Shown one piece after another: positions 1,840 to 40,871 of a stretch of 64,000 nt of DNA. The first letter of the stretch is position 1. Every line of letters starts with the position of its first letter. The stretch comes from Bacteroidota bacterium (GTDB taxonomy: Bacteria > Bacteroidota > Ignavibacteria > UBA10030 > UBA6906): positions 650-64,649 of the forward strand of contig JBBRUI010000001.1 in NCBI GenBank assembly GCA_038247945.1. The letters run 5' to 3'. The position numbers and the translations under genes were made by a program. Below the pieces are notes generated by a model. That model saw only the letters and a list, made by a program, of their open reading frames with translations, searched no databases and was not told where the DNA came from.

Positions 1840-3162
1840 ATGGAATTCGGAAAACATCTTGGCAAAGGCATATGGGGTCTGGCAGACAAGATGCTGCCTG
1901 TTGCATATGGGATCGCCTACGTCGTTCTCGTTATACGGGTACTTCCCCCGGAAGAATTTGGAAGCTTTGTGCTGGTGCAGGAGATATTTTTGATTATTAC
2001 GGGACTGGCGACAGGGTTTGCTCTGCAGCCTTTGCTCAAGTTTGCGTCGGAAGATGCAGTGGAAATTCGGGGATATATCGCTATAGCATTGGTGTTGAAT
2101 ACCGGCTTTCTTCTTCTTTGTTCTCTGCTGATAGTTTTATTCAACGTGCCGTTAAGTCTACTTTTGAACTCTGCATCGCTGGGACCACTGCTCATGTATG
2201 TTCCGGCAATGTTGTTTGCTTCGTACCTGCGGAATTTTTGCCTGGTTTTGCTGCAAACCCGTTTTCGTGTTCAAGAAATTTTTTGGACAGACGTGTTCCA
2301 CTTTCTTGGAACGCCGTTGCTCATCTGGATTTGGTCGCGTATGCATATGTTCAATTCCGCAAATGATTTGCTTAATATAAATCTCATTTCTCTTTCATGC
2401 TCATCGTTGGTGGGATGGTTTTTCTCGCGGGATTTATTCTCGACCCGTTTCTCATTGGACAAACGTGAATTGAAGAAGATGTGGGATTACGGAAGCTATA
2501 GCGTGGGCAGTACTCTCAGCGCCCTGATGATCACAAAATCAGATACATTTATTCTCGCGGCGTTCGGAGGCCTGGTCGAGGTAGCAATATACAATTCGGT
2601 AAAAACATTTGTCCGGATTTATGATATGCTGACTCAGGTTGTGGGGATGTTTGTTTTCCCTGCGTCGTCACGCCTTGCTTCTCAAAATGACTTCACAAGA
2701 TTACGCGCCATGATTGAGAAGGCAATTCTCTTCGCAACGCTCATGATGATTCCCGTCTTCCTGGGTTTCTTAATTATGCCGTCGTTGTTAGTGGAAATAT
2801 ACGGTGGCAAATATGTTGGAGCTGCTCCCATCCTCCGGGTTTTTTCTATTGCGTCGTTGACAGTATCGGCGGCAGCAGTTGCAGGAAATGTACTAATGGG
2901 GTTAGGACATGCGCGGCTGGTGTTTTACCTTTTGCTTCAGCAGTTGGTTCTCACTATAGTAGGATTTTTATTTTTGATTCCGTGGCTCGGCGGTGTCGGA
3001 GCTGCGCTCACCTACGTTATCGTCAGTATTGTGGGGACAGCTATTTCACTTGCGTATCTCAACCGCTATGTTCCATTATCTCTGGGAGCGATCCTTGGCC
3101 GTACCAAAGACATCGTTGTGTTCATGAAATCCCGTCTTGCATTTCCGAATAGAACACCATGA
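1840..3162 (+). CDS. Polysaccharide flippase (Wzx-like, MOP superfamily)
   Basis: 440-aa, very hydrophobic protein with about 12 predicted TM segments. Its start overlaps the stop of the upstream GT2. Confidence 0.7.
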   Translation: MEFGKHLGKGIWGLADKMLPVAYGIAYVVLVIRVLPPEEFGSFVLVQEIFLIITGLATGFALQPLLKFASEDAVEIRGYIAIALVLNTGFLLLCSLLIVLFNVPLSLLLNSASLGPLLMYVPAMLFASYLRNFCLVLLQTRFRVQEIFWTDVFHFLGTPLLIWIWSRMHMFNSANDLLNINLISLSCSSLVGWFFSRDLFSTRFSLDKRELKKMWDYGSYSVGSTLSALMITKSDTFILAAFGGLVEVAIYNSVKTFVRIYDMLTQVVGMFVFPASSRLASQNDFTRLRAMIEKAILFATLMMIPVFLGFLIMPSLLVEIYGGKYVGAAPILRVFSIASLTVSAAAVAGNVLMGLGHARLVFYLLLQQLVLTIVGFLFLIPWLGGVGAALTYVIVSIVGTAISLAYLNRYVPLSLGAILGRTKDIVVFMKSRLAFPNRTP

Positions 3163-3169
3163 ACCAAAC

Positions 3170-4108
3170 ATGATCAAAACAATTCTGATAAAGGCAAAAA
3201 GACTTAAGAAGCGTTTCGATCAGATCAACGAGCTGGTTCAACGCGTTGAACAGTTACAGCAAGCAGTTGGTAGAATAGAAACGCGCTTGTCGCTCCCCGC
3301 AAGAGCGGATAGTAAAAATGTTCAAGACCATGAGTTCAAAGTGTACTCTCAATGGGGAGAGGACGGAATCATTCAATACCTGATTAATTCCATTGAGATT
3401 CCGAACAAGGTGTTTGTTGAGTTTGGGGTGCAGGATTATCGCGAATCGAATACGCGCTTTCTGTTGCAAAATAATAATTGGTCCGGTCTGGTCATGGACT
3501 CTTCTCCCGAGTTTATTCAGCGGATCAAGAACGAACCACTTTACTTTCGGCACAATCTGCGGGCGGAGTGTGCATTCATAGACCGCGACAATATTAACGA
3601 TCTCCTGGATCGCAACGGGATTCGCGGTGACATTGGACTTCTTTCTGTTGATGTTGACGGAATGGACTATTGGATCTGGGAAGCCATCACTGCGATCAAT
3701 CCGCGGATTGTTATCTGTGAATACGACACCTTTTTAGGTTCTGAGCGGGCGGTTGTGACGCCTTATGACAAATCGTTCGACCGTCTGAAGGCTCACTATT
3801 CATTTCTGTATGGGGGAAGCTCAATTGCAGCTATTACTCTACTCGCAAAAAGAAAAGGCTATTCACTCGTAGGATCAAACAGTAATGGCGTGAATGCGTT
3901 TTTCGTCAGAAACGATATTATTGGTTCCCTGCAAGTCTTGACTCCCCGAGAAGCTCATATGAAAGGCAAGTTCCGAAATTCCCACGACCGTGAAGGGAAC
4001 AGAACATTCTTGAGCGCGGAGGTGGGGATCAAACTGATCGGGGATATGCCGCTCTATGATGTGGAAAGAGATTTGACGATCAAAGTCCGCGACCTCAATC
4101 ATTCTTAA
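3170..4108 (+). CDS. FkbM-family methyltransferase-like protein (Methyltransf_21-like)
   Basis: Motif YSQWGEDGII...VFVEFGVQDYRESNTRFLL...WSGLVMDSSP resembles the SQxGED...FVDIGAxD...SNT...WxGxxIEP pattern of FkbM-family methyltransferases, with a degenerate glycine loop. The start was moved from 3137 to the ATG at 3170 to avoid overlap with the flippase. Confidence 0.4.
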   Translation: MIKTILIKAKRLKKRFDQINELVQRVEQLQQAVGRIETRLSLPARADSKNVQDHEFKVYSQWGEDGIIQYLINSIEIPNKVFVEFGVQDYRESNTRFLLQNNNWSGLVMDSSPEFIQRIKNEPLYFRHNLRAECAFIDRDNINDLLDRNGIRGDIGLLSVDVDGMDYWIWEAITAINPRIVICEYDTFLGSERAVVTPYDKSFDRLKAHYSFLYGGSSIAAITLLAKRKGYSLVGSNSNGVNAFFVRNDIIGSLQVLTPREAHMKGKFRNSHDREGNRTFLSAEVGIKLIGDMPLYDVERDLTIKVRDLNHS

Positions 4109-24748: not shown

Positions 24749-25360
24749 TCAACGGTTGCTATTTTGGTCAGATTTGAGAGCAGCTTTGAGCCAGTTTCCT
24801 TGAGTTAGCCTAACTCCAGCAGCGTGAAGCCGGGAGTGCCCGTTCAGTTTTCTTCTCTTACCTCGACAGTCTGTGTAGGGTTTTTGTCGGAGATAGGCAA
24901 CGAGGAGATTAACATACACGACCGCAGTGTGTCGATGCTGAAACGCCTCAATGGTCTTGAACCGACGTTCGAGTTGTTTGTTGACGTTCTCCACCAAGTT
25001 GGTCGTCCTCGGCAATCCCTGGACACGATGGTGTTGCATGAGGCGGTTCCAGTGACGTTTGAGGAACGCAATTGCTTTCCGATGCGCTGTGCGAGGAGGT
25101 CGTCGCGTTCGCTGAAGGCGTTGGAACAGTTCGCTCGCTCTTGCTTCGTCCTTGGCACACATCTTCTCGTCTACCAGAAGTACACCATCCCATGATGGCT
25201 TCAATTCCTTGCTCATCTCCAGCGCTGTCTTGCATCGTCTCCCAAGTTCTTCAACCATCTTCTGCAACGAGGTGGGCGAAATCTTTCTTCCGCTCCGTTG
25301 ATAGACATTCTTGGCAATCACACGATAACTCTCCCGTCCCTCAACGTGTCGACGCACCAC
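24749..25360 (-). mobile_element. DDE transposase fragment (IS256/Mutator-like C-terminal motif)
   Basis: RTTNLVENVNKQLERRFKTIEAFQHRHTAVVYVNLLVAYL matches the C-terminal TTN-x-E-x-N...F motif of IS256-family transposases. At 203 aa it is too short for a full transposase and no inverted repeats were identified. Confidence 0.45.
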
Positions 25361-27755: not shown

Positions 27756-28021
27756 GAGTTTTCTCCTTGATTCGGTTTGGATTTTTAGATTGTGCGGTGG
27801 ATGAATGTAGAAAAGTTGAAGGGGGTAAGCAAGGTCTCTCCATCCTCACCCTGAGCGCAGTCCCGCTTGTTTTTTAAAGCGCTGAGGTCGTAGGTCGAAT
27901 CTCCCGATTCGATTTTTGACTCCCATTACTTTGCCCCTGGCAGATTGCCATTCTCGCGGCGTTTCGCTAACTTGCTTGCAGAAACCGCGCAAGAGGTTGC
28001 ACAAACGAATAAAAATGACAT

Positions 28022-28349
28022 GAAAACATCATCTCACCGACAGCGCGGAACCCGCGGCAACAGACAACATGCATACCTCCGCACAATCCGCAGCCATTGG
28101 GACACACTGAGGAAACGCTACAAGCTCAAGGAAATCGGAATCTTCGGGTCCGTCGTTCATGGTAAGGAAACGAAGAAGAGCGACATTGATATCCTGGTGG
28201 AGTACGAAGAACTGCCGGACCTTCTGGAGTTCATCAACCTTGAGAACTATCTGGAAGAGATACTGAAAAGGAAGGTGGACCTTGTCGAGAAACATGGGGT
28301 GCGTCCGGAACTGCGGGACCGCATATTCAACGAGGTGGTCTATTTGTAA
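28022..28349 (+). CDS. Minimal nucleotidyltransferase (MNT-type), orphan
   Basis: IGIFGSVVHGKETKKSDIDILVEY is the GS-x9-D-x-D nucleotidyltransferase motif. The start was taken at MKTSSH (109 aa). No HepT/HEPN partner is adjacent. Confidence 0.65.
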
Positions 28350-28394: not shown

Positions 28395-28430
28395 CCCCCG
28401 GTCAGATGCTGGCCGGGGGTTTGTGGTTTT
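28395..28430 (+). terminator. Rho-independent terminator
   Basis: cccccgg-tcagatgctgg-ccggggg followed by tttgtggtttt, directly after the MNT gene. Confidence 0.5.
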
Positions 28431-28559
28431 GGGGGCATTAAGTGCCGAGGATTTTTTGACGGTAGCCGATGTCATTACATTATTGAAAATATAATGTTAT
28501 ATATTCTTGCATATATAGAAATTATTGTTTTCATTATAACGGCAGAATAAAGGAATCAA

Positions 28560-28793
28560 ATGAGCGTGAAATCCACCCGGAGAGAGCGGTTCGAAAGTGT
28601 TGCCGCGAGACGTACCCAGAAAATTCTGGATTTGCTGGATATCCTCGGGAACTGTTCAAATAAGAACAACTACGAATATACGGATACAGATGTCCGCAAA
28701 ATGTTCTCAGCAATCAGAGACAAAACGAAGAGTACCGAGGCGGCCTTCGGAAATGCAATTAACCGGTCAACAAAAAATAAATTCACATTTTAA
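28560..28793 (+). CDS. Small hypothetical protein (77 aa), first gene of the AT-rich island operon
   Basis: RBS AAGGA upstream. Its stop TAA overlaps the ATG of the next gene (TAATG). Confidence 0.4.
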   Translation: MSVKSTRRERFESVAARRTQKILDLLDILGNCSNKNNYEYTDTDVRKMFSAIRDKTKSTEAAFGNAINRSTKNKFTF

Positions 28794-30793
28794 TGAAACC
28801 ATATTGGCATTATATAAAATTTCCAAGTAACGCTGGTTTGAGCAGAAAACCACCGAGATTTAAGGACTTAGGGGCTCACAATATTAAGACATTTGTTCGA
28901 GAGCTAATCCAGAACTGCCTTGATGCAAGACATAAAGATTTGCTCCCTGTCGAAATCAAAATTGTCATAAAAGAGTGGGGCAAAACAGAGCTCAATAACT
29001 TTCTCGGACTTCTTGGAGATGACCACGTAGAGCTTCTGAAAAAATCCTATGATGAAGCTTTACCGGAAGTTAAAGTTCACATGCAAGCTGGTTTCGATTT
29101 ACTCGGCGGGGAACATGAGAAAACCTTCTGTCTTATCGTTGAGGAAAGGAATTGCGTCGGCTTAACTGGCTCTGTTATTGGTTCAAATGACAAGTCACAC
29201 TTCAATGCGTTAGTTCGCCAAACCGATAACAACGAAAATAAAAGAGAACTATCAAACAGCGGCGGAACATGGGGAAAAGGTAGTTCTGTTTTTACGTACA
29301 TTTCAAAAATGTGGACTTGGTTCTGTTACACAAAATTGTCTGAGCCATGGAATGGCCCCACTGACAACATTGTTCACCAAAAAAGATTTATGGGCCGCTG
29401 TATGATTGCACCATTCTTTGACCAAGAAAACAACAACAGTTATTGGGGTGATGGTTGGTTTTGCAAGCCTGGTACCGATGCTTTTCCGTACATAAATGAC
29501 GATGCTGATGCAATGGCTCGAATATTCGGGATGAACTTGAGGAGTGATCCGGGTTGCACCTTTTTGATTCCCTTCTTGTCTCCCACGATTGAGAGTATGG
29601 ACAATTTGTCAATTGAGGCTCCAACCAAAGAAAATGTTTTTGCTGAATTTAGAACACAGATTCTGCAAAACTGGTTTATTCCGATTTTCAATGGCCAGCT
29701 AAGAGTCGTTGTTGAAAATGAGGATCAAGTTATTTCGATTGACAAGGAATATTTGATTAAGAATGTCCCTGAATTAAAATTCAAAGTGGCGATTCTCAAC
29801 TGGTATGAGCAGGGTTGTCCACCCGATAAAGCGTTTATTAAGGAAACCATTGAAGTTGACGTTCCGGGACTACAGCGAAGTTTGATCAACAAGTTTAATC
29901 GGTTTGCTGTTGTAAGAGAAAGGATAAAGCTTGATTTAATCATCAGAGTTTTATCGGAAGACGAGGACTATGAGAAAAACTGGGGAACTCAAAATACAGT
30001 TGCTTTAGCAAGAGGGAAAGGGATGGTTGTAACGCATTCTGATGAGGGAACGAAATTCTTAGCGAATTCGACGGATATACGAACTGAAAGTATCTTGTTT
30101 TCTGGTTTGCTTTCGGCTAGTGAAACCAATTTAGAAAAGAGGAAACATTTGGATTTGTTTTTAGCTTACTCTGAAAATCCTGCTCACAACAAATGGTGTT
30201 CTTATCCTGCTGATTACGCAATTTGTTTTCTTGAATTATTTGAAGGGAAAAGACCGGCTCCGGAAAAAACCATCAAAGATATTTACGATTCGATCTACCG
30301 GGCATTCAAAAAACTGTTTGACGAAGAAAAAATACAGCCACAGAATAAAGACATTTGCTCAATTTTTAAAAAACTTGCCCAACTCAAGACCTCAGGTAGC
30401 GAAGGAACCGGAAAAGCACTGTATTACATGAGAACCCCTGACGGAGTTACCAATCCGGCCATTACAGAGGGAAGATACAATTTTGAATTCAGGTTTATTC
30501 ATTCAGAGAATGTAACGGAGAATGTTCGCGTGGACTTTCGAAGTCTGATTGAATCCTTGGAAGGTGAAACGAATAAAGATTTTAATAATCTTGGGATATC
30601 GGACTTTGAAAACATTGAACTATTTGACAAGTTTGGAACCAAATATGGTGAAGGTAAGAACCCATCAATTCTGTTAAAACCCGGACATCCTTTAACTGTT
30701 AGAATTAGGACCTGCAACATTGACGGCAATCCCCGCTTCAAAAATCTGAAACCGATTATCAAAACTTCTGGTAGAATTGATATAGTATCATGA
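28793..30793 (+). CDS. GHKL/MORC-like ATPase-domain protein (666 aa), unknown function
   Basis: N-box RELIQNCLDA resembles the Bergerat-fold motif I (ELVxNAxDA). IVEERNCVGLTG is G1-like and NSGGTWGKGSSVF is G2-like (GxxGxGxxSxF). The remaining ~450 aa are unrecognised. Confidence 0.45.
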   Translation: MKPYWHYIKFPSNAGLSRKPPRFKDLGAHNIKTFVRELIQNCLDARHKDLLPVEIKIVIKEWGKTELNNFLGLLGDDHVELLKKSYDEALPEVKVHMQAGFDLLGGEHEKTFCLIVEERNCVGLTGSVIGSNDKSHFNALVRQTDNNENKRELSNSGGTWGKGSSVFTYISKMWTWFCYTKLSEPWNGPTDNIVHQKRFMGRCMIAPFFDQENNNSYWGDGWFCKPGTDAFPYINDDADAMARIFGMNLRSDPGCTFLIPFLSPTIESMDNLSIEAPTKENVFAEFRTQILQNWFIPIFNGQLRVVVENEDQVISIDKEYLIKNVPELKFKVAILNWYEQGCPPDKAFIKETIEVDVPGLQRSLINKFNRFAVVRERIKLDLIIRVLSEDEDYEKNWGTQNTVALARGKGMVVTHSDEGTKFLANSTDIRTESILFSGLLSASETNLEKRKHLDLFLAYSENPAHNKWCSYPADYAICFLELFEGKRPAPEKTIKDIYDSIYRAFKKLFDEEKIQPQNKDICSIFKKLAQLKTSGSEGTGKALYYMRTPDGVTNPAITEGRYNFEFRFIHSENVTENVRVDFRSLIESLEGETNKDFNNLGISDFENIELFDKFGTKYGEGKNPSILLKPGHPLTVRIRTCNIDGNPRFKNLKPIIKTSGRIDIVS

Positions 30794-31779
30794 GCGAAAA
30801 AATAATAGTAATAGAGCCATACAGAACCGGCGCCAACCTAATCTCTCTCAAGGGAAGAGTTTCCTTGGATGGAATTAAAGATGAAATAACGATTCCCGAC
30901 AGGAATCATCTGAATCTGTTCAATTATTCTTTGGATTCGGGAACGATACTTATCCCTCGGTCACATAATACCCTTACGCTAGATCTTACTACGCATTGGG
31001 AAAGTGCCAAAGGAATAGGCGATTTGAAATTCCTTATTGACGAATCAGAAAAGCCCGAAGAAACACTTTCACTTATTGTTGAGGTTTGGTGTAAAACCAC
31101 CCGGTGGTGCAGCGAGCAAAAAAGTATTCCCTTAAATGAAATCGGAACGAAACGTCAGTTCTCATTTAATATTCCGATTAACGAGGTAAAGGAGCTGCTT
31201 ACAGTGTCTGCTTTTGTTATAAGGGAAAAAGGAAACAGCAAAACATTTCTGCGAAAGGCCAGCACGAAGTATTCAATTTTGTCAGAAAGTGAAGAAATCA
31301 CAATTCAGATTGATGAACGAAAGGAGATCGGGGGTGCCTATCTCCCAATTGAACCGGAAAACATTGGTGATCGGATATTTGAGATAAGAGGTCTGGACAA
31401 TGAAACGGACATTCCGCGAATAAAATTTTCAGAAGATTTCAAAGAATACTTTACAAGAGATGATTTGCAGACTGTGAATACAACATTTATCATATCGATG
31501 TTCTATTTTCTGGATTCCTATTTGAAGTGGTTGATTTTTGTAAGCCGCAATGACCCCGCCGATAAAACATACAAAAGCGTGCTGGATTTATTTTCGCGAT
31601 ACTGTGATATAACCAAGTCGCAGCTCATAGAAATCGTTCAGATGGAAAAACATTCTCCCGAGCAAACAAAAGCATTTTTGAAACTGTCACAAGATCTGTT
31701 TAATGGTTTACAAACGAATGTAAATTTCAAATACAAGAAAGAGCTGTTGAAGATCATAAAAGCCGAAGCCGCAAAATGA
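30790..31779 (+). CDS. Hypothetical protein (329 aa), operon partner
   Basis: Start overlaps the upstream stop (ATGA). No recognisable motif. AT-rich. Confidence 0.4.
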   Translation: MSEKIIVIEPYRTGANLISLKGRVSLDGIKDEITIPDRNHLNLFNYSLDSGTILIPRSHNTLTLDLTTHWESAKGIGDLKFLIDESEKPEETLSLIVEVWCKTTRWCSEQKSIPLNEIGTKRQFSFNIPINEVKELLTVSAFVIREKGNSKTFLRKASTKYSILSESEEITIQIDERKEIGGAYLPIEPENIGDRIFEIRGLDNETDIPRIKFSEDFKEYFTRDDLQTVNTTFIISMFYFLDSYLKWLIFVSRNDPADKTYKSVLDLFSRYCDITKSQLIEIVQMEKHSPEQTKAFLKLSQDLFNGLQTNVNFKYKKELLKIIKAEAAK

Positions 31780-32567
31780 AAAACTACAAAAACAAAGTAG
31801 AGCACTTTATTAATCTTCTAGAGCCCGGAGAAGGCAAGAATGGGGAGCTATTCAATCTGTTCAACATTTACTCCCAAGACAGATTCAACGGATATCTTGC
31901 TAGTAAAATTGAATTTGAGATCACGGGTGACGTGACAGATGCCGAAGAAAAGATGTTGCAAAAAATAAAAAGCGAAATAAAACAATTACAGAAGCAATTT
32001 TCAGATGCAAAAGCAGAAAGACTGGAATTTGATTTAGCAAAAATTTTCCATTCGAATTTGAGGGAAATAGGTTTTGGCAGATTTCACGTCGATGATATAG
32101 GAATGTGGAGATGGATGTCAATGAATTATTTCAAAGAAGAAACATTTTGGCGTAGGGGGCTATCTGATCTCGATAAGAAAGAAATTCCAAAGGCGGCCAA
32201 AGCGACTTTTGAACATTGCATAGGAAAAAGAAGCAGAGACATCTTCCCAAGACGTTATTTTGTTATCGGCCAAAGACTATTCGACACAAACGAGAAGTAT
32301 GCTTTGATTGAAAAGTTAGCAGAAAAGTCAAGGGCAGCAAGAAGCGGCGGGTTCGGTAATCTTATCGCAAACATCGTTGAAACAAAACTGATTAGTCCGA
32401 ATGATTATGTTTCAAAAGTTATTTCTAAAATAATGTTCGCCGATAGAGGTATTGGCGACGATAAGGAAGTGAAAAATGCATTTGTTAGATACAATGCTTA
32501 CAGAAAGAGATTGCTTAATAATGCCTCTGAGAATGTATTCAGGAATGAAATTTGCCTTATGGAATGA
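31776..32567 (+). CDS. Hypothetical protein (263 aa), operon partner
   Basis: Start overlaps the upstream stop (ATGA). No recognisable motif. Confidence 0.4.
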   Translation: MKNYKNKVEHFINLLEPGEGKNGELFNLFNIYSQDRFNGYLASKIEFEITGDVTDAEEKMLQKIKSEIKQLQKQFSDAKAERLEFDLAKIFHSNLREIGFGRFHVDDIGMWRWMSMNYFKEETFWRRGLSDLDKKEIPKAAKATFEHCIGKRSRDIFPRRYFVIGQRLFDTNEKYALIEKLAEKSRAARSGGFGNLIANIVETKLISPNDYVSKVISKIMFADRGIGDDKEVKNAFVRYNAYRKRLLNNASENVFRNEICLME

Positions 32568-33792
32568 GCTGTTTCTTGATTGCTTTAGCAATCGCATTCG
32601 CCATCAACGGAGGAACCGCATTTCCGATTTGACGGAACATAGCCGTTCGTGAGCCCTCAAAATAAAAATCGTCAGGAAATGATTGGAGCCGTGCTGCTTC
32701 TCTCACTGAAATCGAGCGACATTGCGCCTTGCTCGGGTGTATGTAGTAATGCCCGTCTTTCGCTATGTGTGCAACTACTGTGTGGGAAATCCCTCTTCCA
32801 TCAACAACTTTGAAGCGGTCAAGAAACGCCTTTGTGTTTTTTTGTGTCTGCAATTCTTTTGGAATGTCCGTGTATTTAATCCGCTTTTTTGAATTTTTCC
32901 AGCTGTCAATAGCAAGTTTGTAAATTTTCAGATCGTTGGGGTTGTGTGGCCGACAAATATGTTGCGTATAGGAATCAATTCCATTTCTTAATCCAAATGT
33001 TTCAAGGTATCCATTTGTTTTGTTTGTGTATTTGCCTTTCGTTTTTACTTGCCCCGGCGAAAGACGAGAGAGGTCCGAGAAAATGCTTGCGGTCTTGAAA
33101 CTATGTTTGGAGATCTCGGGGTCGGGATAGGAGAACATCATATCTCTTTTCCATCCAACGATGATTACCCGTTTGCGGTTTTGTAGTACCCCATAATCTT
33201 TTGCATTCAGAATCTTATCCTCGGTTTTATAACCAAGTCTTTCAAAGTAATGTTTCAATCCCTGATAGTACTGACCATCATTTGCACTCAGCAAACCGGG
33301 AACATTCTCAAATACAAAAAGCTTCGGGTTAAACTCTTTCAGAAACTTTCCATACTGCACATACAATTTCACCCGATCGTCTTTTTCCCAATCAATAGCG
33401 TGTCTGCCTATGAGTGAATATCCCTGACAAGGTGGTCCGCCAATTATTAAGTCGAGTTCTTTCTTGTCCTGCTTATTCAGAATTGAATGAACGCTGTCAA
33501 AAATATCTCTCAATGAATCGTCAGAAATCTTTGCATTGATTACAGAATCAGAATGCTCCTTCGGCAAATGGCTGTACAAAATTTCTCTGGAAATATTTCC
33601 AGTAATGTAATCATAGTAAACATCGAGCCTGTTGTTCTCTTTCAGATAGTGAAAAGCAACTCGTGTTTTAATGGTCAAGCAAGCATCTGGATCCATTTCA
33701 ATGTGAGCAATGGGATTCATATCATTGCGCTTGAATCCCTCTGAAAGAGCCGATGTCCCGGCGAAAAGATCTATATAATTGAGTTGGTTCAC
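32557..33792 (-). CDS. dcm: DNA cytosine-5 methyltransferase
   Basis: Motif I DLFAGTSAL, motif IV GGPPCQGYS and an ENV motif FVFENVPGL. Confidence 0.85.
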   Translation of the reverse strand: MNQLNYIDLFAGTSALSEGFKRNDMNPIAHIEMDPDACLTIKTRVAFHYLKENNRLDVYYDYITGNISREILYSHLPKEHSDSVINAKISDDSLRDIFDSVHSILNKQDKKELDLIIGGPPCQGYSLIGRHAIDWEKDDRVKLYVQYGKFLKEFNPKLFVFENVPGLLSANDGQYYQGLKHYFERLGYKTEDKILNAKDYGVLQNRKRVIIVGWKRDMMFSYPDPEISKHSFKTASIFSDLSRLSPGQVKTKGKYTNKTNGYLETFGLRNGIDSYTQHICRPHNPNDLKIYKLAIDSWKNSKKRIKYTDIPKELQTQKNTKAFLDRFKVVDGRGISHTVVAHIAKDGHYYIHPSKAQCRSISVREAARLQSFPDDFYFEGSRTAMFRQIGNAVPPLMANAIAKAIKKQLIP

Positions 33793-34226
33793 TTAGTTTG
33801 TTTCTGCGCTGTTTTGCTCAATCGCCGTCCAACTTTGTTAAGGGTTTTCTCTCTTCTTTTCGGTTTCAGTTCGCATTCAAATATAACTATTACTTTCCAG
33901 CCTTCCTTACGAATTTTCAAAGAGTTTATCAAGTCTCTTTGTGAATTACCGCCAATCTTCTTTAGCCACCATTTAGTGCGGGTTTTAGGCGGAACAAAAT
34001 ATTTGCAACCTTCATGTCCATGCCAGTAGCAACCGTGAACGAAAATTACTGTCCTCAGCTTTGGAAAAACCAGGTCGGGTTTCCCGGGAAGGCGTTTGTC
34101 GTGAAGTCTGTAACGGAAGCCGCTGGTAAAAAGAAATTTTCTAACCAACATCTCAGGCTTGGTATCTTTGCCTTTGATTTGGCTCATGTTGAAGCTTCTG
34201 GTCCGTTTGTCGTGAACGTCTGCCAT
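33789..34226 (-). CDS. vsr: Very-short-patch repair endonuclease
   Basis: FVHGCYWHGHEGCKY and a ~145-aa length are typical of Vsr. It overlaps dcm by 4 nt. Confidence 0.85.
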   Translation of the reverse strand: MADVHDKRTRSFNMSQIKGKDTKPEMLVRKFLFTSGFRYRLHDKRLPGKPDLVFPKLRTVIFVHGCYWHGHEGCKYFVPPKTRTKWWLKKIGGNSQRDLINSLKIRKEGWKVIVIFECELKPKRREKTLNKVGRRLSKTAQKQTK

Positions 34227-34407
34227 GCGATAACATCGTCGAATACCCGAGTAACTTAAGATGATTTTTGCTCAGTTGAAAGACGATTTCATCTGTCGAA
34301 CGATCACCGTACATCCGCTCCGGGATATTGCAGTCCGAATTATTTTGCCATATACTGAACTAGCTCATCTCTTTTCTAATTCCAAACTTATCCCGAACAA
34401 CCCTCAG

Positions 34408-36624
34408 ATGATTTTCCTCCTTTCCCGGCCATTATGGATTTTCCTGTTTCTCATTTTAACGCCTGCTCGTTCAGCGTTTGCCCGGAATGATTTCTACGTT
34501 GCGCCCAACGGAAATGATTCCGGACCAGGCTCGAAGACGGCACCTTTCGCGACACTTGACCGTGCGCGGCAAGAGGCCCGGCTCACGAACGGAGTAACAA
34601 TATGGATCCATGGCGGAGTGTACCGGCTCACCCAAACGTTCAGGCTCGATAGCCTTGATTCCGGAATAGCTGAGTCCCCGGTTATGTACCGCTCAATGCC
34701 CGGTGAAGATGTGCACATCATTGGCGGCAGGATGCTCGATCCGTCTGTATTCAAGTCCGTGACCGACGAAAAGATTCTTCGGGTACTGACACCTGAAGCA
34801 CGCGGGCATGTCGTTGAAGCACAACTGCGTTCGTCAGGTATCAGTGATTTCGGAGAACTGAAACAATACGGCCACGGGCATCCCGTGGTGCCGGCTCCTC
34901 TGGAACTGTTCTTCAATGAACGGCCGATGCAGCTTGCGCGCTATCCGAATTGGGGCGACATACCCATGGGCAAGGTCATCGACCCGGGCTCGGTTCCGCG
35001 TGTCGGTGATTTTTCCAACCGGGGCGGCACGTTCGTCTATGCCGATCCGCGCCATGCGCGTTGGGCCGGCCTGGATGATGTATGGCTGCAAGGAACATTC
35101 ATGTGGGGTTACTCGGATGACATGATCCGCGTTGAATCCATCGACACGCTGACGCAAAAGATCAGGCTCTCTTCTCCGCATCTGTACGGTCTCGGAAGCG
35201 GCGAGCCCTTTCGGCAATATGTCGCTCTGAATATTCTGCAGGAGATCGATCAGCCGGGCGAATATTATCTTGACCGGAAAAGCGGAGTACTTTACTTCTG
35301 GCCGCCGGAACCGCTGAAGGGTTCCACCATTGCAGTTTCCGAACTTGAGCGGCCAATCATCGCGCTGGAAGGCGCTTCGCACATTGTCCTGCAGGGACTC
35401 ACCGTTGAATATGCCCGCGGCATGGGCATCTATATAGAAGGGGGTGAAGGAAATTTGATTGCGGGTTGCACTATCCGCAACACAGGAACGATTGGCATCA
35501 TGATGGGGCAAGGTTCAAAACCTCCGGCGAGTCCAGCAAGCGTTGATGCGGAAATATATAACGGAGTTGCCGTCAGCGAAGAAATCGGTGATCTGCAAAA
35601 TCATCTCTACATCGATACGGGATGGGACAGGAAGGCCGGCATGAAACAGGGAGTCCTTTCGTGCGATATTTACAACACCGGCTCCGGCGGAATTTTCCTT
35701 GGCGGCGGCAACAAGAAGCGGCTGATTGCGGGCGGCTCCTTTGTTGAGAATTGCCGGATTCACGACTACAACCGTCGCAACAAGTTTCTCTGGGCGGGAG
35801 TGAATGTTGACGGCTGCGGCAACAGGGTTGCACACAATGAAATTTACAACTCGGATTCCCAGGGAATCTATGTGCACGGTAATGATCACGTGTTCGAGTA
35901 CAACGTTGTCCATGATGTCGCGATGAATTCGGATGATACATCGCCCTGGTATCTTGGCCGTGATCCGAGCGACCGTGGAAATATCGTGCGCTATAATTTC
36001 TTCCATCATATCGGAAGACCGGATAGAATGGTGATGGGCATTTATCTTGATGACGGCACATGCGGCGCCACGATCTTCGGCAACGTATTGTATAAAGCCG
36101 CAACCTACGGAGCAGTGTACAGCAATGCCGGTCAGGACAATATCGTCAGGAATAATATCTTCATTGAATCGTACGGACCGGCGGTACACATGAAGTCGAT
36201 GTGGTACGACTTTGCAAAAGGCCAGATCAAACAGTACTTCGGTCCGGATGGAATCTTCCGCCGGCGCTTAACCAAATCTGTTGATATCTACACGCCTCCC
36301 TACAGCACGCGTTATCCTCAATTGATGAACTTCCTCGATCTCATGGCGGACAGTATTACCTACATCGGAATGCGGCCCCTGAGGAATATCATGGAATGGA
36401 ATGTTGTTTACAACTGCCCGGAGGTTCTCAGATTGACCGGGCCCTATGCAGCATTCGAAGCAAGGAACAACCTTGTCACCAGAGATGACCCGGGGTTTGT
36501 GGATGAGGTGAGAATGAATTTTGAGTTACGCGACGATGCAGCCGTCTACAAGAAGCTGAAAGGGTTTCAGAAAATTCCATTTGCGCGGATCGGGCCGTAC
36601 TCTGACAAGTACAGAAAGAAATAA
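34408..36624 (+). CDS. Secreted right-handed parallel beta-helix repeat protein (pectate-lyase-fold)
   Basis: Signal peptide (MIFLLSRPLWIFLFLILTPARSAFA) followed by NDFYVAPNGNDSGPGSKTAPFATLDRA, the typical N-terminus of beta-helix proteins. Confidence 0.55.
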   Translation: MIFLLSRPLWIFLFLILTPARSAFARNDFYVAPNGNDSGPGSKTAPFATLDRARQEARLTNGVTIWIHGGVYRLTQTFRLDSLDSGIAESPVMYRSMPGEDVHIIGGRMLDPSVFKSVTDEKILRVLTPEARGHVVEAQLRSSGISDFGELKQYGHGHPVVPAPLELFFNERPMQLARYPNWGDIPMGKVIDPGSVPRVGDFSNRGGTFVYADPRHARWAGLDDVWLQGTFMWGYSDDMIRVESIDTLTQKIRLSSPHLYGLGSGEPFRQYVALNILQEIDQPGEYYLDRKSGVLYFWPPEPLKGSTIAVSELERPIIALEGASHIVLQGLTVEYARGMGIYIEGGEGNLIAGCTIRNTGTIGIMMGQGSKPPASPASVDAEIYNGVAVSEEIGDLQNHLYIDTGWDRKAGMKQGVLSCDIYNTGSGGIFLGGGNKKRLIAGGSFVENCRIHDYNRRNKFLWAGVNVDGCGNRVAHNEIYNSDSQGIYVHGNDHVFEYNVVHDVAMNSDDTSPWYLGRDPSDRGNIVRYNFFHHIGRPDRMVMGIYLDDGTCGATIFGNVLYKAATYGAVYSNAGQDNIVRNNIFIESYGPAVHMKSMWYDFAKGQIKQYFGPDGIFRRRLTKSVDIYTPPYSTRYPQLMNFLDLMADSITYIGMRPLRNIMEWNVVYNCPEVLRLTGPYAAFEARNNLVTRDDPGFVDEVRMNFELRDDAAVYKKLKGFQKIPFARIGPYSDKYRKK

Positions 36625-36650
36625 TCTACAGCATCCCGGTTCTCTTCCGG

Positions 36651-36722
36651 ATAAACCACTCCACCGCAAACAGCAGCACGACCAGCGCGAGCATATATTT
36701 CCAGTTCCACAATTCGAACTCC
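36651..36722. repeat. Direct repeat copy 1 (remnant 3' end of the vWA gene); copy 2 is at 38743..38814
   Basis: 72 nt, about 88% identical to the 3' end of 38718..40871. The minus-strand remnant ORF (about 36624..36764) encodes ...FELWNWKYMLALVVLLFAVEWFIRKRTGML, almost identical to the vWA C-terminus. Confidence 0.7.
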
Positions 36723-36962
36723 GTAACAACTGCACGTTCATTGCGCGTCCTGGAATTCACCATGTGAATGATTGATCTCAAAAACTCCAGCGGTACCGCT
36801 TTAGCAGCATTCTCCCATATTATGCCTCGGAAGCCTGCACAAAGCAGCCTATTCTGTAACCATTACCGCTATAGCGGCAATTTTTCTTAAACATAGAATA
36901 ATCTCCTTGACTGCAGCTGGTAATCAGAGTATTTTGCTGTTAAAGCAGTAAGGAACTAGCAA

Positions 36963-37223
36963 ATGAAACCACTCGGGAACATCGGCATTGGAGAAATCGT
37001 CCGCTTTCATCGGACGAGGGCAGGGTTAACGCAGAAAGCTCTTGCTGACCTCGCTGGGGTAGGCAAGACTGTGGTGTTCGACATTGAGAAGAATAAACAA
37101 TCCGTGCAATGGGATTCGCTCAACAAAATTTTCAATGCATTGAACATCACGATTGTGTTTGAGAGTCCGCTCATGAAAGAACTGAATGAAGAGTTAAAAA
37201 AGGCCGGCGATGAAAAGAGCTAA
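36963..37223 (+). CDS. hipB: HTH (XRE-family) antitoxin, HipB-like
   Basis: GLTQKALADLAGVGKTVVFDIEKNKQ is a helix-turn-helix. First gene of three overlapping ORFs. Confidence 0.7.
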   Translation: MKPLGNIGIGEIVRFHRTRAGLTQKALADLAGVGKTVVFDIEKNKQSVQWDSLNKIFNALNITIVFESPLMKELNEELKKAGDEKS

Positions 37224-37521
37224 TGTCTCCATGCATGGCGTTCCGGCAGGAACGCTTGAGGAACACGAGCAGGGAAAGAAGTACGTCTTCCGTTATCGAG
37301 AAGAATACTCGGGCCCTGCGATCTCATTGACGATGCCTGTCGCGCAGAGGGAGTTTGCATTCGAAATCTTTCCTCCTTTTTTTGACGGTGTTCTTCCTGA
37401 AGGAGTCCAACTCGAGGGTCTCCTCCGGCAAAGGAAAATAGACCGGAGTGATTTTTTTTCGCAACTCACAGCAGTCGGTCAGGACCTCGTCGGAGCAATC
37501 ACTGTCGAAGAGGCGGAATGA
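37210..37521 (+). CDS. HipA N-terminal subdomain protein (HipS-like)
   Basis: 103 aa; SMHGVPAGTLEE...FRY...FFDGVLPEG matches HipA N-terminal subdomain 1. It overlaps both neighbours. Confidence 0.6.
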   Translation: MKRANVSMHGVPAGTLEEHEQGKKYVFRYREEYSGPAISLTMPVAQREFAFEIFPPFFDGVLPEGVQLEGLLRQRKIDRSDFFSQLTAVGQDLVGAITVEEAE

Positions 37522-38447
37522 AACGTTGTCCGATTACATATGACGAAATCGGGAAGGGCGAGTATTCGGACCGCGGACTTCGCCTTCTCTCACGGCAATT
37601 GAAGGGATTGCAACCGCTTCCGTACACAGCGGAAGAGCAACGCCTCGAAGCTGTACGAAGAGCGGCAAAGATGTCGATCCAGGGAGTGCAGGCGAAACTG
37701 AGCGCCCGGCTGAACGTGAAGGAGGAATGCTTCGACGTAGTGGATACTGGCGGCCGGTTTATTTTGAAACCGCAAAGCAGCATGTACCCGGAGCTTCCAC
37801 AGAATGAAGATCTTACGATGCGACTTGCAGCCGAAGCCGGAATAGAAGTGCCGCTGCACGGGATGGTATACTCGAAGGATGGGTCGCTGACGTATTTCAT
37901 CAATCGTTTTGATCGTGTTGCCAGAGGCGGCAAACTCGCTGTTGAAGACTTTGCCCAGGTGCAGGGAAAGACGAGAGACACGAAGTATCAGTCGAGTATG
38001 GAGCAAGTTGCGGCAACGATTGAAACGTACTGCACGTTTCCGGCAGTGGAGAAGGTGAAACTGTTCAGGCTGACGCTGTTCAACTTTCTTGCGGGGAATG
38101 AAGATATGCATCTGAAGAATTTCTCGCTCATCAATCGCGACGGAAAGGTCGAGCTTTCACCTGCATACGACCTTCTCAACACAACGATTGCCGTACGGGG
38201 TGCAACGGAAGAACTTGCGTTGCCATTGCACGGCAAGAAGAATAGTCTGAAACGAAGCGACGTTGTTGACTATTTTGCACTCGAACGCCTTGCGCTAAAG
38301 CCGAAGATAGTTGACAGTGTTCTGGAGGGGTTTGTCAAAGCTGCAGGTCGATGGCAAGAGCTGATCGGGATCTCTTTTCTTTCTGATCCGATGAAGCAAT
38401 CATATCTCTCGCTGCTGGATGAGAGAAAAAAAAGACTCGAACTATAG
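37518..38447 (+). CDS. HipA-family Ser/Thr kinase toxin, C-terminal kinase portion (HipT-like)
   Basis: LAGNEDMHLKNFSLINRDGKVELSPAYDLLNT is the HipA catalytic-loop motif. At 309 aa it lacks the N-terminal subdomain carried by the upstream ORF. Confidence 0.7.
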   Translation: MKRCPITYDEIGKGEYSDRGLRLLSRQLKGLQPLPYTAEEQRLEAVRRAAKMSIQGVQAKLSARLNVKEECFDVVDTGGRFILKPQSSMYPELPQNEDLTMRLAAEAGIEVPLHGMVYSKDGSLTYFINRFDRVARGGKLAVEDFAQVQGKTRDTKYQSSMEQVAATIETYCTFPAVEKVKLFRLTLFNFLAGNEDMHLKNFSLINRDGKVELSPAYDLLNTTIAVRGATEELALPLHGKKNSLKRSDVVDYFALERLALKPKIVDSVLEGFVKAAGRWQELIGISFLSDPMKQSYLSLLDERKKRLEL

Positions 38448-38717
38448 TGAACTTACATCTTCTGCAAAAAAATATCAGGGGCTACGTAGTGTTAGTTGTA
38501 GACTCTTTCCCGGGCCACTTTAAATTCCGCCATGGCCTTTTTGATTTCTTCAAAATACCGCTTCTTGTCTGTCTGGTAGAGGGTGCTTAATTCCTCTCTG
38601 ACTTTTCGCATGAAATCAACAGACTTAAAATCACTTTCGTTATTCGCTTCCATACGTCACCTCCACATAAAATTTCATAACGCAAATTGTAAATATTCGG
38701 AATCAAGGTCAAATAAC

Positions 38718-40871
38718 TTAAAGCATGCCGCTGCGTTTTCTAATAAACCACTCCACCGCAAACAGTAACACAACAAGGGCGAGCATGTATTTCCAGTTCC
38801 ACAATTCAAACTCCCGCGTCAGGTGAATGTCGCGGGGAACGAACGAGGGCAGGTTCTTCAGTCTGCTGAAAATATCCGGGAAGCCGGAGGGCGTGTAGAA
38901 CTCCCCGCCCGTTCGCGCTGCAAGCTGTCGCAGTAACTGCACGTTCATGCGCGTATCCTGAAACTCAAGAGCCAGCTCGCCCACCGAAAATCTTCCTCTG
39001 TCTTCGCCCAACGGTTGCCCGTCCGATGAGGCGACAGCCTTGTACGAGTAATCGCCCTCGCCCGGACCTTCGAGCGTTCCTTCGTAGCGTCCGTTGCCAA
39101 TCGGCCGCAGAGTTGTCTCATATTCTTTTCCGCTCTGTTGCGCGACAAGCTTTATCTGCGCATTCTCAACGGGGTTTGCGCTCGCGTCGTACACCTGTCC
39201 GGTAAACTCAATCGGCTCGCCCTGCGTGAATGCAGTTTTGATTGGTGTTACTTTCACGGGACGGTTATCGTCGCGTGTCGTCAACCAGCGGATGCTGTTG
39301 GAAAGAAATGTTGCAAGAAGTTTTTCCGTTTCGGGAATACCCTGCGCCATCAGGCGCCAACGCCAGAGTCCGTACCCGAGAACAGCGAGCGACTTCTGCT
39401 TGTTGACATTGCGAATCAGAACAAGCGGGTCGTTGAGGACAATGGCGTTGATCTTTGTTGTAGCAAGAACCGTTGCCTCTGCTTTTGCCTTGCTCACGGT
39501 TTGAGTTTTGAACAGCGGCGGCAACCGTTTCCAGCCCGCCTCGTTCTGTTCCGCTCCAGCCGCAAGAATGGGATGGTTCTTTTGTGAAGGTTCCATGAAC
39601 ACAAGCTGCTCGTTTGCGGATGTGTTTGTGCGGGTGAACGGAAGGAACGAGCCGAGCGACGCAAGCTTTTGTTCGTCGACGTTCTTTCCATCGATAAAAA
39701 ATATTGGGGTTGACCTTCGCTGAATCGAAGTCCGCACCGGGTCGAGCAGCGCGTTGCCTGTTGACGCAATCGGAAAGCCGATAAACATGATGCAATCCGA
39801 GGAGTCGAGAAGCTGGGCCGTCATCGATCCCTCATAAAAAGCAGACGAGGATTTCTGTGTCAGCGACCGGACGTCGAGGTTCTTGTCTTCACGCAATGTT
39901 TGCTTGAGAACCGAAACATCGGGCGAAGGGCTGCCTGCGATTATGAGAATCCGCAGCTTGCTTTTGAGAATGCGGGCGAGGAATGTCCGCTGGTTGTTCG
40001 CGGTGGTCAGCTCGCCGGGCAGGCGCGAGACGCGCACGGAATATTTTTTTATTCCTTCACCATCGGGCGTGTATGAAAGGCGCACTGAATATTCCCGTGT
40101 ACCTTCTTCGAGTGTAAGCTGCGAGCGGCCGAGTTCCTTGCTGCCTTCAGAAAGAATGACCTCAACTTTCTCGCCCTTGAAGCCCGAGCTTTTGATCGTG
40201 ACGTCAACAGGAACTTCAGTCTGGTTGTACACTAATTCATTCGTCAGCACTTTCGTGATGAGGATATCCTTTTGTTCCGTCGAGTCGCCGATGCCGACGG
40301 TGAAGAGAGGAATCCCGATTTCCTCCGCCTCGTATAGCGGGTTCTGCCCGAGATTGTAACTCCCGTCGCTGATCAGCAACGCAGCGCCGATATTGCTCCG
40401 GTCTTTTTCTTCTGCGACCTTGCGAAGCGCTGCTGTAATATCCGTCGCCCCTTCGTCTATGTGGAGAGAGTCGATTGCACCGGCCTCGATTTGCTTTGGC
40501 TTCGCTCCGAACGCGTAGAGACGGATTTCATCGGCGGAGTTCTTGAATCCCTTTTCCGCGAGAAAGCGTTTCAGAATTTCCGCCCGGTCGCCTGTCCGGT
40601 CTTTAATGCTCATGCTCTTGCTGTTATCAACCAGCACAGCAAGAACAGGATTTTGGGTGGATGTAGAAATAAAGCGGAGCAAAGGCTCGAAAAGAAATAC
40701 CAGCAGCAACGCGAGAGCAATCGACCGAAGAACGATTAGAATAATTTTTTTGGAACGGGGGATCGGCGGGACGGTCGTCCGGTAAAAAAAAATCGAAATA
40801 GCTGCGGCGATGAGAACGAGGAGAAGGACAACGAACGCGGAAACTGTAAAGCTGAGAGTAATGTCAGGCAT
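38718..40871 (-). CDS. vWA-domain membrane protein (BatA-like)
   Basis: N-terminal TM segments, a vWA region and a C-terminal TM segment, immediately downstream of a MoxR ATPase (the classic MoxR-vWA pair). Confidence 0.6.
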   Translation of the reverse strand: MPDITLSFTVSAFVVLLLVLIAAAISIFFYRTTVPPIPRSKKIILIVLRSIALALLLVFLFEPLLRFISTSTQNPVLAVLVDNSKSMSIKDRTGDRAEILKRFLAEKGFKNSADEIRLYAFGAKPKQIEAGAIDSLHIDEGATDITAALRKVAEEKDRSNIGAALLISDGSYNLGQNPLYEAEEIGIPLFTVGIGDSTEQKDILITKVLTNELVYNQTEVPVDVTIKSSGFKGEKVEVILSEGSKELGRSQLTLEEGTREYSVRLSYTPDGEGIKKYSVRVSRLPGELTTANNQRTFLARILKSKLRILIIAGSPSPDVSVLKQTLREDKNLDVRSLTQKSSSAFYEGSMTAQLLDSSDCIMFIGFPIASTGNALLDPVRTSIQRRSTPIFFIDGKNVDEQKLASLGSFLPFTRTNTSANEQLVFMEPSQKNHPILAAGAEQNEAGWKRLPPLFKTQTVSKAKAEATVLATTKINAIVLNDPLVLIRNVNKQKSLAVLGYGLWRWRLMAQGIPETEKLLATFLSNSIRWLTTRDDNRPVKVTPIKTAFTQGEPIEFTGQVYDASANPVENAQIKLVAQQSGKEYETTLRPIGNGRYEGTLEGPGEGDYSYKAVASSDGQPLGEDRGRFSVGELALEFQDTRMNVQLLRQLAARTGGEFYTPSGFPDIFSRLKNLPSFVPRDIHLTREFELWNWKYMLALVVLLFAVEWFIRKRSGML
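38743..38814. repeat. Direct repeat copy 2 (authentic 3' end of the vWA gene)
   Basis: See 36651..36722. Confidence 0.7.

Follow-up and report, generated by a model that had tools for sequence, protein, structure and literature searches.

The window analysed here, a continuous stretch of 64,000 nucleotides (64 kb), contains a hipB-hipS-hipT gene cassette enclosed by two direct repeats. One repeat is the functional 3' end of a gene for a 717-residue membrane protein, and the other, on the far side of the cassette, is a remnant of that same gene end. As a toxin-antitoxin (TA) system the module is an ordinary member of a well-studied family. What is new is its mobility footprint, a variant of a little-known kind. 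The features of the locus are listed below by position, with the strand in brackets where one applies.

34261-36624 (+): gene for a right-handed beta-helix protein, 787 aa; left flank, its stop codon abutting that of the remnant
36619-36722: left direct repeat, 104 nt
36626-36722 (-): remnant of the last 31 codons and stop of the 717-aa gene, with an intact frame and one S to T change
36722-36759 (-): second remnant block, homologous to 38929-38967 (the EFQDTRMNVQLL region), nhmmer E=9e-4
36863-36951 (+): hipBST control region, with two operator-like palindromes around a promoter-like site
36863-36880 and 36934-36951: the palindromes, of the type TTAC(C/T)GC-N4-GC(A/G)GTAA
36907-36935: promoter-like site TTGACT-17-TATTTT, between the palindromes
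36963-37223 (+): hipB, protein with a helix-turn-helix (HTH) of the Cro/C1 type, 86 aa; Pfam HTH_3, E=7e-8
37210-37521 (+): hipS, free-standing HipA N-subdomain-1 protein, 103 aa, presumed antitoxin; Pfam Couple_hipA
37518-38447 (+): hipT, HipA core kinase without N-subdomain 1, 309 aa, presumed toxin; Pfam HipA_C PF07804, E=2e-47
38492-38653 (-): open reading frame (ORF) of 53 aa in the spacer between hipT and the 717-aa gene
38711-38814: right direct repeat, the functional 3' end of the 717-aa gene (stop codon at 38718-38720)
38718-40871 (-): target gene, encoding the 717-aa membrane protein with weak von Willebrand factor A (VWA) similarity, downstream of a MoxR-type ATPase gene

By homology, the stretch from 36863 to 38447 is an addiction module of the Legionella HipBST type, complete in itself, with the genes hipB, hipS and hipT. 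The initial annotation, made from the sequence alone, had described three overlapping ORFs for an HTH protein, a 103-aa HipA N-subdomain and a 309-aa kinase core, and all three lie where it placed them (the overlaps are 14 nt for hipB/hipS and 4 nt, ATGA, for hipS/hipT). Its choice of a split HipBST over a two-gene hipBA is borne out by Pfam and by matches to the Legionella HipBST structures. The best solved relative of HipB is HipB(Lp) (PDB 8EZT, E=3.9e-16), and its match to the NCBIfam model TIGR03070 (couple_hipB, E=6e-17) is below the cutoff of that model. Couple_hipA (PF13657) covers residues 5-99 of HipS with E=5e-24; here the best solved relative is HipS(Lp) (PDB 7VKB_B, E=9e-34), and the corresponding E. 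coli O127 chain (PDB 7AB3_B) scores E=7e-15. HipT matches HipT(Lp) over its full length (PDB 8EZR/7VKB, E=2.5e-126), the kinase of E. coli O127 HipBST at E~1e-25, and classical HipA structures at E-values of 1e-5 to 1e-8. The residues of HipT described as essential are the P-loop serine, two lysines, and the H-x-K-N and D motifs (PMC9325769); when checked against the residue list of that study, the protein encoded here keeps S53, K60, K84, D196, H198, N201 and D218. The locus has the sequence features by which HipBST is recognised, namely the gene order, a HipS of ~100 aa, a HipT with intact P-loop and catalytic motifs, and an HTH HipB. HipT is presumed to be a HipA-core Ser/Thr kinase toxin and HipS, the detached HipA N-subdomain, to be its neutraliser; the toxicity of HipT and its target, by the definition of HipBST an aminoacyl-tRNA synthetase, we infer by homology.

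The order hipB-hipS-hipT is constant in 80 of 80 sampled related loci with readable flanks, and the HipT family is very large (>7,900 proteins at E<1e-30). Its Legionella members P0046 and P0085 are named "lpg2370 family Dot/Icm T4SS effector" by NCBI, T4SS being the type IV secretion system. HipT proteins of 60-70% identity are common in metagenomes of Bacteroidota, Ignavibacteriota and Desulfobacterota that lack such a secretion system, and this level of identity across phyla suggests a recent and wide horizontal spread.

The control region upstream of hipB is conserved in L001, the closest related genome, and partly in the more distant cassette of L008. The palindromes are putative HipB operators, at which HipB would repress the operon. 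Searches of Pfam, NCBIfam and PADLOC gave no match for the 53-aa ORF at the other end of the cassette. Both the window and the independent assembly L011 have this ORF, and its absence from L001, where the spacer measures 110 nt rather than the 270 nt of the window, places it outside the conserved cassette.

The repeat copies are identical at 86 of 104 positions and lie 2092 nt apart, start to start, with hipBST and the 53-aa ORF between them. Their local alignment scores 118, against 27-29 for the best of 30 shuffles. The initial annotation had reported a 72-nt repeat of ~88% identity; the repeat is real, although it extends over 104 nt and is followed by a second block, and the 72-nt core is 90% identical (65/72). 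Two identical runs are common to both copies, one of 23 nt (36651-36673 = 38743-38765) and one of 20 nt (36696-36715 in the left copy), and both fall on the codons that are most conserved in the gene. The remnant, which is oriented as its parent gene, was said to encode the last ~30 residues and indeed encodes 31; against a profile of orthologous gene ends it scores E=1.6e-27 (nhmmer). Its stop codon (36626-36628) is 1 nt from that of the convergent beta-helix gene (36624). About 115 nt are deleted between the first and the second remnant block, and the second carries a 1-nt deletion inside it. No further copies or additional remnants that would point to serial integrations were found in the 64-kb window, which holds two copies only.

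An independent Logan assembly (L011) is 100% identical to the window across 5455 nt spanning both copies, which makes assembly collapse unlikely; with the same architecture also present in L001, an assembly artefact was rejected. A DNA transposon was rejected as well, as no inverted repeats bound the unit and no ends are conserved among the cassettes. So was a diversity-generating retroelement with template and variable repeats: there is no reverse transcriptase, and the mismatches affect all bases, are synonymous and are not adenine-specific.

The target gene had been called BatA-like. The similarity to VWA domains is there but weak: the matches (E=4e-5 and 2.5e-4) fall below the Pfam thresholds, and there is no NCBIfam match, so that we refer to it only as the VWA-like gene. 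Its closest homologue, P0242 (89% identical), lies on a 2.4-kb contig. The C-terminal 31 residues of the protein are nearly invariant among orthologues.

The genome closest to that of the window (L001/L006; 87% identical in protein and 80% in DNA) has the same cassette at the same place and in the same orientation, with the VWA-like gene, hipT, hipS and hipB followed by its own remnant beyond hipB. There the flanking duplication is ~90 nt long, the remnant is decayed by stops, indels and frameshifts, and the gene within 17 nt of it is thioredoxin-like instead of the beta-helix gene. The cassette is missing from L103, a genome with 94.4% identity to L001 on either flank; the stop of its VWA-like gene is followed by 27 nt and then by the thioredoxin-like gene. 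The single gene 3' end of L103 (1290-1385) aligns to the functional end of L001 at 89 of 97 positions and to the L001 remnant at 72 of 94. L001 and L103 thus differ by a clean presence/absence polymorphism that is bounded by the repeat. Five more distant relatives (L002-L005 and L007) likewise have one gene end and no cassette, and they provide one-sided empty sites for the window. The insertion next to a gene terminus that had been proposed is supported by these comparisons, and the cassette-free relatives with a single VWA-like 3' end that it had predicted exist (L103, L002-L005, L007). No relative with the duplication but without the TA genes was found.

The cassette is much younger than its hosts. 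Between the window and L001, synonymous divergence (dS) is 0.33 for hipT, 0.39 for hipS and 0.37 for hipB, compared with 1.05 for the MoxR gene, 1.81 for a SurA-like gene, and 1.10 and 1.46 for the two halves of the target gene. In addition, ~100 nt of non-coding DNA upstream of hipB can be aligned between the two, whereas host intergenic DNA cannot. As the cassette dS is far below that of the host genes, the cassette moved after the two hosts had split, and the common ancestor of the two cassettes is far more recent than that of the genomes that carry them. The L001 insertion (or a precise loss from L103) is younger still, and postdates a split that is itself at dS 0.04-0.28. The cassette has therefore moved between lineages, reaching the same gene end beside different downstream genes.

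The two copies of the repeat behave as two alleles. Over the 31 codons common to both copies in the window, 16 of 93 nucleotides differ, yet only one amino acid is changed (proportion of synonymous differences pS 0.74, of nonsynonymous differences pN 0.03). In a simulation of neutral decay, none of 20000 runs kept the peptide so intact if at least half of the changes fell on the remnant. Sixteen nucleotide differences with one amino acid change, together with this simulation, indicate that the window copies diverged within working genes. Those of L001 are 75% identical, with 23 differences and three indels, against ~12 differences expected at most for an event younger than the dS~0.2 split (Poisson p=0.003). 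Relative to the empty site of L103, identity of the L001 remnant is 88% over the 24 nt beside the stop and 73% farther out; the functional end shows the opposite trend, with 84% beside the stop and 94% farther out. These gradients follow the pattern of a reciprocal exchange inside the repeat, which leaves donor/recipient chimeras. The functional end of L001 (92% identical to the empty site) looks largely native, and the element-borne part looks to be the distal portion of the remnant. The initial annotation had pictured an element that inserted at the gene terminus while supplying a replacement end. The insertion and the second, allelic end are both supported; for the window the replacement is no more than a possibility, and in L001, the one insertion with an empty-site control, the functional end looks largely native.

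Similar footprints recur around other hipBST cassettes. Flanking duplications were scored as positive at an alignment score of at least 36, with equally spaced pseudo-cassettes in the same contigs as controls; 10 of 62 non-redundant cassettes were positive, compared with 1 of 48 pseudo-cassettes (Fisher p=0.013). All five cassettes that are at least 71% identical to that of the window have such repeats, and two sites at ~70% (L012 and L095/L098) are without them. The next closest cassette (L008-L010, HipT 79% identical) lies in an unrelated context, between repeats of 105-112 nt, the duplicated 3' end of an NmrA-like gene in convergent orientation; the L008 remnant keeps its frame by an in-frame 6-nt indel and has a dN/dS of 0.22. 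In L092 (75%), 64 nt of the end of the upstream gene are duplicated, and in L097 (71%) the repeat is 61 nt and intergenic. The duplication in L053 comprises 260 nt, with the promoter and the first 60 codons of an AAA_14/DUF4143 gene (copies 90% identical), and that in L048 comprises 80 nt of intergenic DNA (95% identical). Altogether, the duplications range from 27 to 260 nt among related cassettes, and no terminal sequence is common to the cassettes beyond the promoter region and the hipT stop.

Two further repeat-bounded intervals came to light in this survey. The hipBST cassette of L085 lies between two diverged direct copies of an IS200-like Y1 transposase gene (1-680 and 2723-3649; 223 nt, ~65% identical), and these flanking repeats differ in kind from the gene-end duplications. 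Of all control intervals, the L089 pseudo-cassette (1000-2450) alone is flanked by a strong direct repeat (score 105), and perhaps represents a different repeat-bounded insert with no relation to hipBST.

We consider it somewhat more probable than the alternatives taken together (about 0.55) that the locus represents a recombinase-free addiction cassette which spreads by host homologous recombination through a duplicated gene-end arm. This reading draws directly on the identity of the module by homology, the repeat-bounded insertion polymorphism, a cassette younger than the host split, repeats that are two alleles, and the recurrence at other genes; the recombination route and the retention by addiction we infer. 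The cassette would travel together with a copy of the end of its target gene. A donor fragment of the form gene end, cassette, remnant would have two arms homologous to the same conserved terminus; alternatively, a circle excised by recombination between the repeats would carry one arm. Because both repeats are homologous to that terminus, either form could enter an empty site by host (RecA-type) homologous recombination, regardless of the hypervariable downstream flank. With each entry the duplication would arise anew, as a chimera of the alleles of donor and recipient, an element-encoded recombinase would be unnecessary, and toxin-antitoxin addiction would counter-select loss through recombination between the repeats.

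Several observations weigh against this interpretation. The window copies are 83% identical, with longest identical runs of 23 and 20 nt, which is near the lower limit for efficient RecA recombination, and runs of this size suit the core of a site-specific system equally well. No circular or excised form of the cassette was seen, and an illegitimate event, which the model does not explain, is still required for a first capture at any new gene. The window's own insertion has no complete empty-site counterpart among the relatives, none of which is syntenic on the beta-helix side, and the beta-helix homologues L101 and L102 have other neighbours than in the window. The chimera gradients of L001 are based on few sites (Fisher p~0.12 each). 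Similarity to orthologues does not single out the native copy in the window, as synonymous sites are saturated. Along the 3' end of the target gene (38718-38935), pS between the window and L001 is 0.26 at codons -71 to -32 and saturated in the last 16, compared with 0.58 gene-wide. The low-pS stretch is cassette-like in its divergence and is exactly the part deleted in the remnant (binomial p=3e-4 before correction for multiple testing); such patchiness, which the homology-arm model does not predict, may reflect a recombination mosaic. The enrichment of flanking duplications is modest, over all loci (p=0.013) as well as in the blind metagenome sample alone (7/57, p=0.05), and several of the positive repeats are short or intergenic and could be genomic repeats. 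Finally, all sequences are from metagenome assemblies.

The main rival, which we regard as unlikely, is that the unit resembles a cis-mobilizable element (CIME): a tyrosine or serine recombinase encoded elsewhere, or since lost, would have used an attP site mimicking the target 3' end; attL and attR would then be the two repeats, and the 23-nt run their core. The window and L001 are well accounted for in this way. A position at a gene 3' end, direct repeats and a restored frame are the classic footprint of such integration. The identical 23-nt run in both repeats, the occupation of the same site in two lineages (window and L001) and the chimera pattern of L001, which fits reciprocal exchange within the repeat, agree with it too. 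No recombinase gene, however, lies within ~14 kb in the window, and none was found on L001, L008 or L103; the repeats tightly bracket only 1.7-2.1 kb, and no arm or terminal sequence is conserved among the cassettes. Close relatives of the cassette occupy unrelated targets, with duplications of 27-260 nt that include a promoter with a 5' end as well as intergenic DNA, so that one recombinase and att pair would not account for such varied targets and lengths. Variable lengths at different targets are what is known of the restriction-modification (R-M) insertions (PMC2853133), and they would suit a long target duplication made in place, in which staggered breaks are filled in at insertion and the initially identical copies then diverge. 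Some copies are indeed nearly identical (L048, 95%; L053, 90%). We nevertheless find this explanation improbable: 16 differences at 93 coding sites with one amino acid change in the window are incompatible with the neutral decay of a dead copy, and the L001 copies are 75% identical even though their insertion is younger than the dS~0.2 split. In-place duplication with later neutral decay was rejected on the simulation and on the timing given by L001 and L103.

It is comparably hard to credit that no dedicated mobility is involved, the locus being a recombination-prone island and the remnant a by-product either of an unrelated rearrangement or of illegitimate recombination facilitated by homology, with its anchor in the VWA-like gene. 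The ~11 kb from the VWA-like gene to an M2 peptidase gene are island-like, and the genes downstream differ in every relative. In the window, L001, L008 and L092, nevertheless, what the repeats enclose is exactly the cassette, and the L001/L103 difference is a clean presence or absence bounded by the repeat. With the gene as anchor for illegitimate recombination, the remnant should be native and the functional end foreign. The comparison of L001 with L103 shows the opposite, and this version was rejected, since the polarity it predicts is not seen in L001. Very improbable, lastly, is the retention of the remnant as a gene in its own right, a 45-51-aa single-pass membrane peptide (36626-36781, minus strand) divergent from hipB. 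Its frame is open, the transmembrane segment is perfectly conserved, and the equivalent L008-type remnant is called as a 44-aa gene in L009 and L010. Against this, stops and frameshifts interrupt the L001 remnant, the ORF in the window has a frameshifted fragment as its upstream part, and there is no family match.

The surroundings of the cassette have the character of an island. The M2 peptidase gene, which lies 0.65-2.9 kb past the VWA-like gene in L004 and L007, is 11 kb away in the window, and the intervening ~11 kb hold a nucleotidyltransferase gene, a low-GC block, the beta-helix gene, the remnant and hipBST. The initial annotation had remarked that no integrase is present, and this holds more widely: the annotated part of the window (19-44 kb), to ~14 kb from the cassette, has no integrase, complete transposase or other recombinase. 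The sole trace is a 203-aa fragment of an IS66-family transposase (24749-25360; DDE_Tnp_IS66, E=2e-5), 11 kb away, between the genes for a protein sorted by the type IX secretion system and for the M2 peptidase.

The nucleotidyltransferase (NTP_transf_2/Polbeta, 27945-28349) has strong PADLOC PDC-S09 matches and probably represents MNT in a HEPN-MNT pair. The low-GC block (28400-34200; 37-41% GC vs ~52% around it) has three co-directional genes with unknown products (28793-30793, 30790-31779 and 31776-32567), which converge on genes for a C5 cytosine methylase (32557-33792) and Vsr (33789-34226). The product of 28793-30793 (666 aa) has a GHKL-like N-box and a weak PADLOC PDC-M33A match (E=1e-12), and the block looks like a candidate methylase-linked defence system. 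A set of GHKL-ATPase and DNA methylase genes is found a few kb from the cassette in both the window (28793-33792) and L008 (730-5147). A larger island common to the two was rejected, because the proteins are not homologous beyond generic C5-methylase motifs; the arrangement looks like co-location in defence islands, not one shared element.

Cassettes for TA and defence systems are patchily distributed and move between genomes, and most chromosomal copies are without a mobility gene, so that their route is largely unexplained. The locus described here provides a concrete and testable route: a filled/empty pair (L001/L103) is at hand, one gene end has been occupied twice independently, and other genes show the same footprint. 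It is possible, though doubtful at present, that HipBST cassettes, and perhaps addiction modules generally, form a class of recombinase-free mobile units that home across diverged genomes by a portable gene-terminus arm and are kept by addiction. If general, such a route would help explain how islands build up beside conserved genes. A literature search of incomplete coverage found no report of such a flanking footprint for TA cassettes.

In its genes the module is closest to HipBST of Legionella pneumophila (Lpg2368-2370; PDB 7VKB, 8EZR, 8EZT; PMC9325769, PMC10653801), which matches it in its three genes, in their order and in their sizes. The host of the window differs, being an Ignavibacteriota/Bacteroidota-like metagenome-assembled genome with no Dot/Icm context, and so does the history of the locus: the module here is a recent, repeat-bounded insertion, whereas the Legionella system is described as strongly conserved among Legionella species. 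HipBST of E. coli O127:H6 (PDB 7AB3-5; PMC6581861, PMC10627512) and the HipT clade of Gerdes et al. 2021 (PMC8262856) share the split-HipA architecture. The E. coli O127:H6 system is much more distant from that of the window, and TrpS is known as a target for the E. coli system only. Classical two-gene hipBA of E. coli K-12 has a homologous kinase core and an HTH partner; in the window, by contrast, a gene of its own encodes the N-subdomain, and the role of main antitoxin is not expected to fall to HipB.

In its flanks the locus is comparable to two kinds of element. CIMEs, and the integration of ICEs (elements that are both integrative and conjugative) and of integrative mobilizable elements at the 3' ends of protein genes (PMC5704250, PMC6323972), are alike in their direct repeats, intact target and lack of an integrase inside. 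CIMEs differ in that their att sites are short, nearly identical and linked to a known ICE integrase, whereas duplication length and target vary among close relatives of the window's cassette and no partner element is visible. The other kind is the "insertion with long target duplication" of R-M systems, in which cassettes without mobility genes are bounded by repeats of ~30-420 bp that are single in empty-site genomes (Nobusato et al. 2000; Furuta et al. 2010, PMC2853133; PMC3874152); those authors proposed a cycle resembling that of a virus and breakage of DNA by the R-M enzyme. Here too an addiction-type cassette has direct repeats of variable length that often overlap a gene 3' end. By the definition of Furuta et al. 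2010, the insert holds a complete system in <20 kb without a mobility gene, and the direct duplication exceeds 30 bp. An empty site with similarity on both sides and the repeat present once is available for L001 in L103, and the window has one-sided empty sites only. That definition also has both copies derive from the single target of the recipient, whereas the divergence here shows two alleles. The cargo is different as well, being a type II kinase TA system with no DNA-cutting activity, and the repeats are 75-83% identical, vs mostly >93% in the R-M insertions. Repeats that behave as two alleles argue for recombination through a carried arm rather than for the fill-in of a staggered cut, and a cassette spreading in this manner would, if the reading is correct, offer a mechanism for the unexplained long target duplications of restriction-modification systems.

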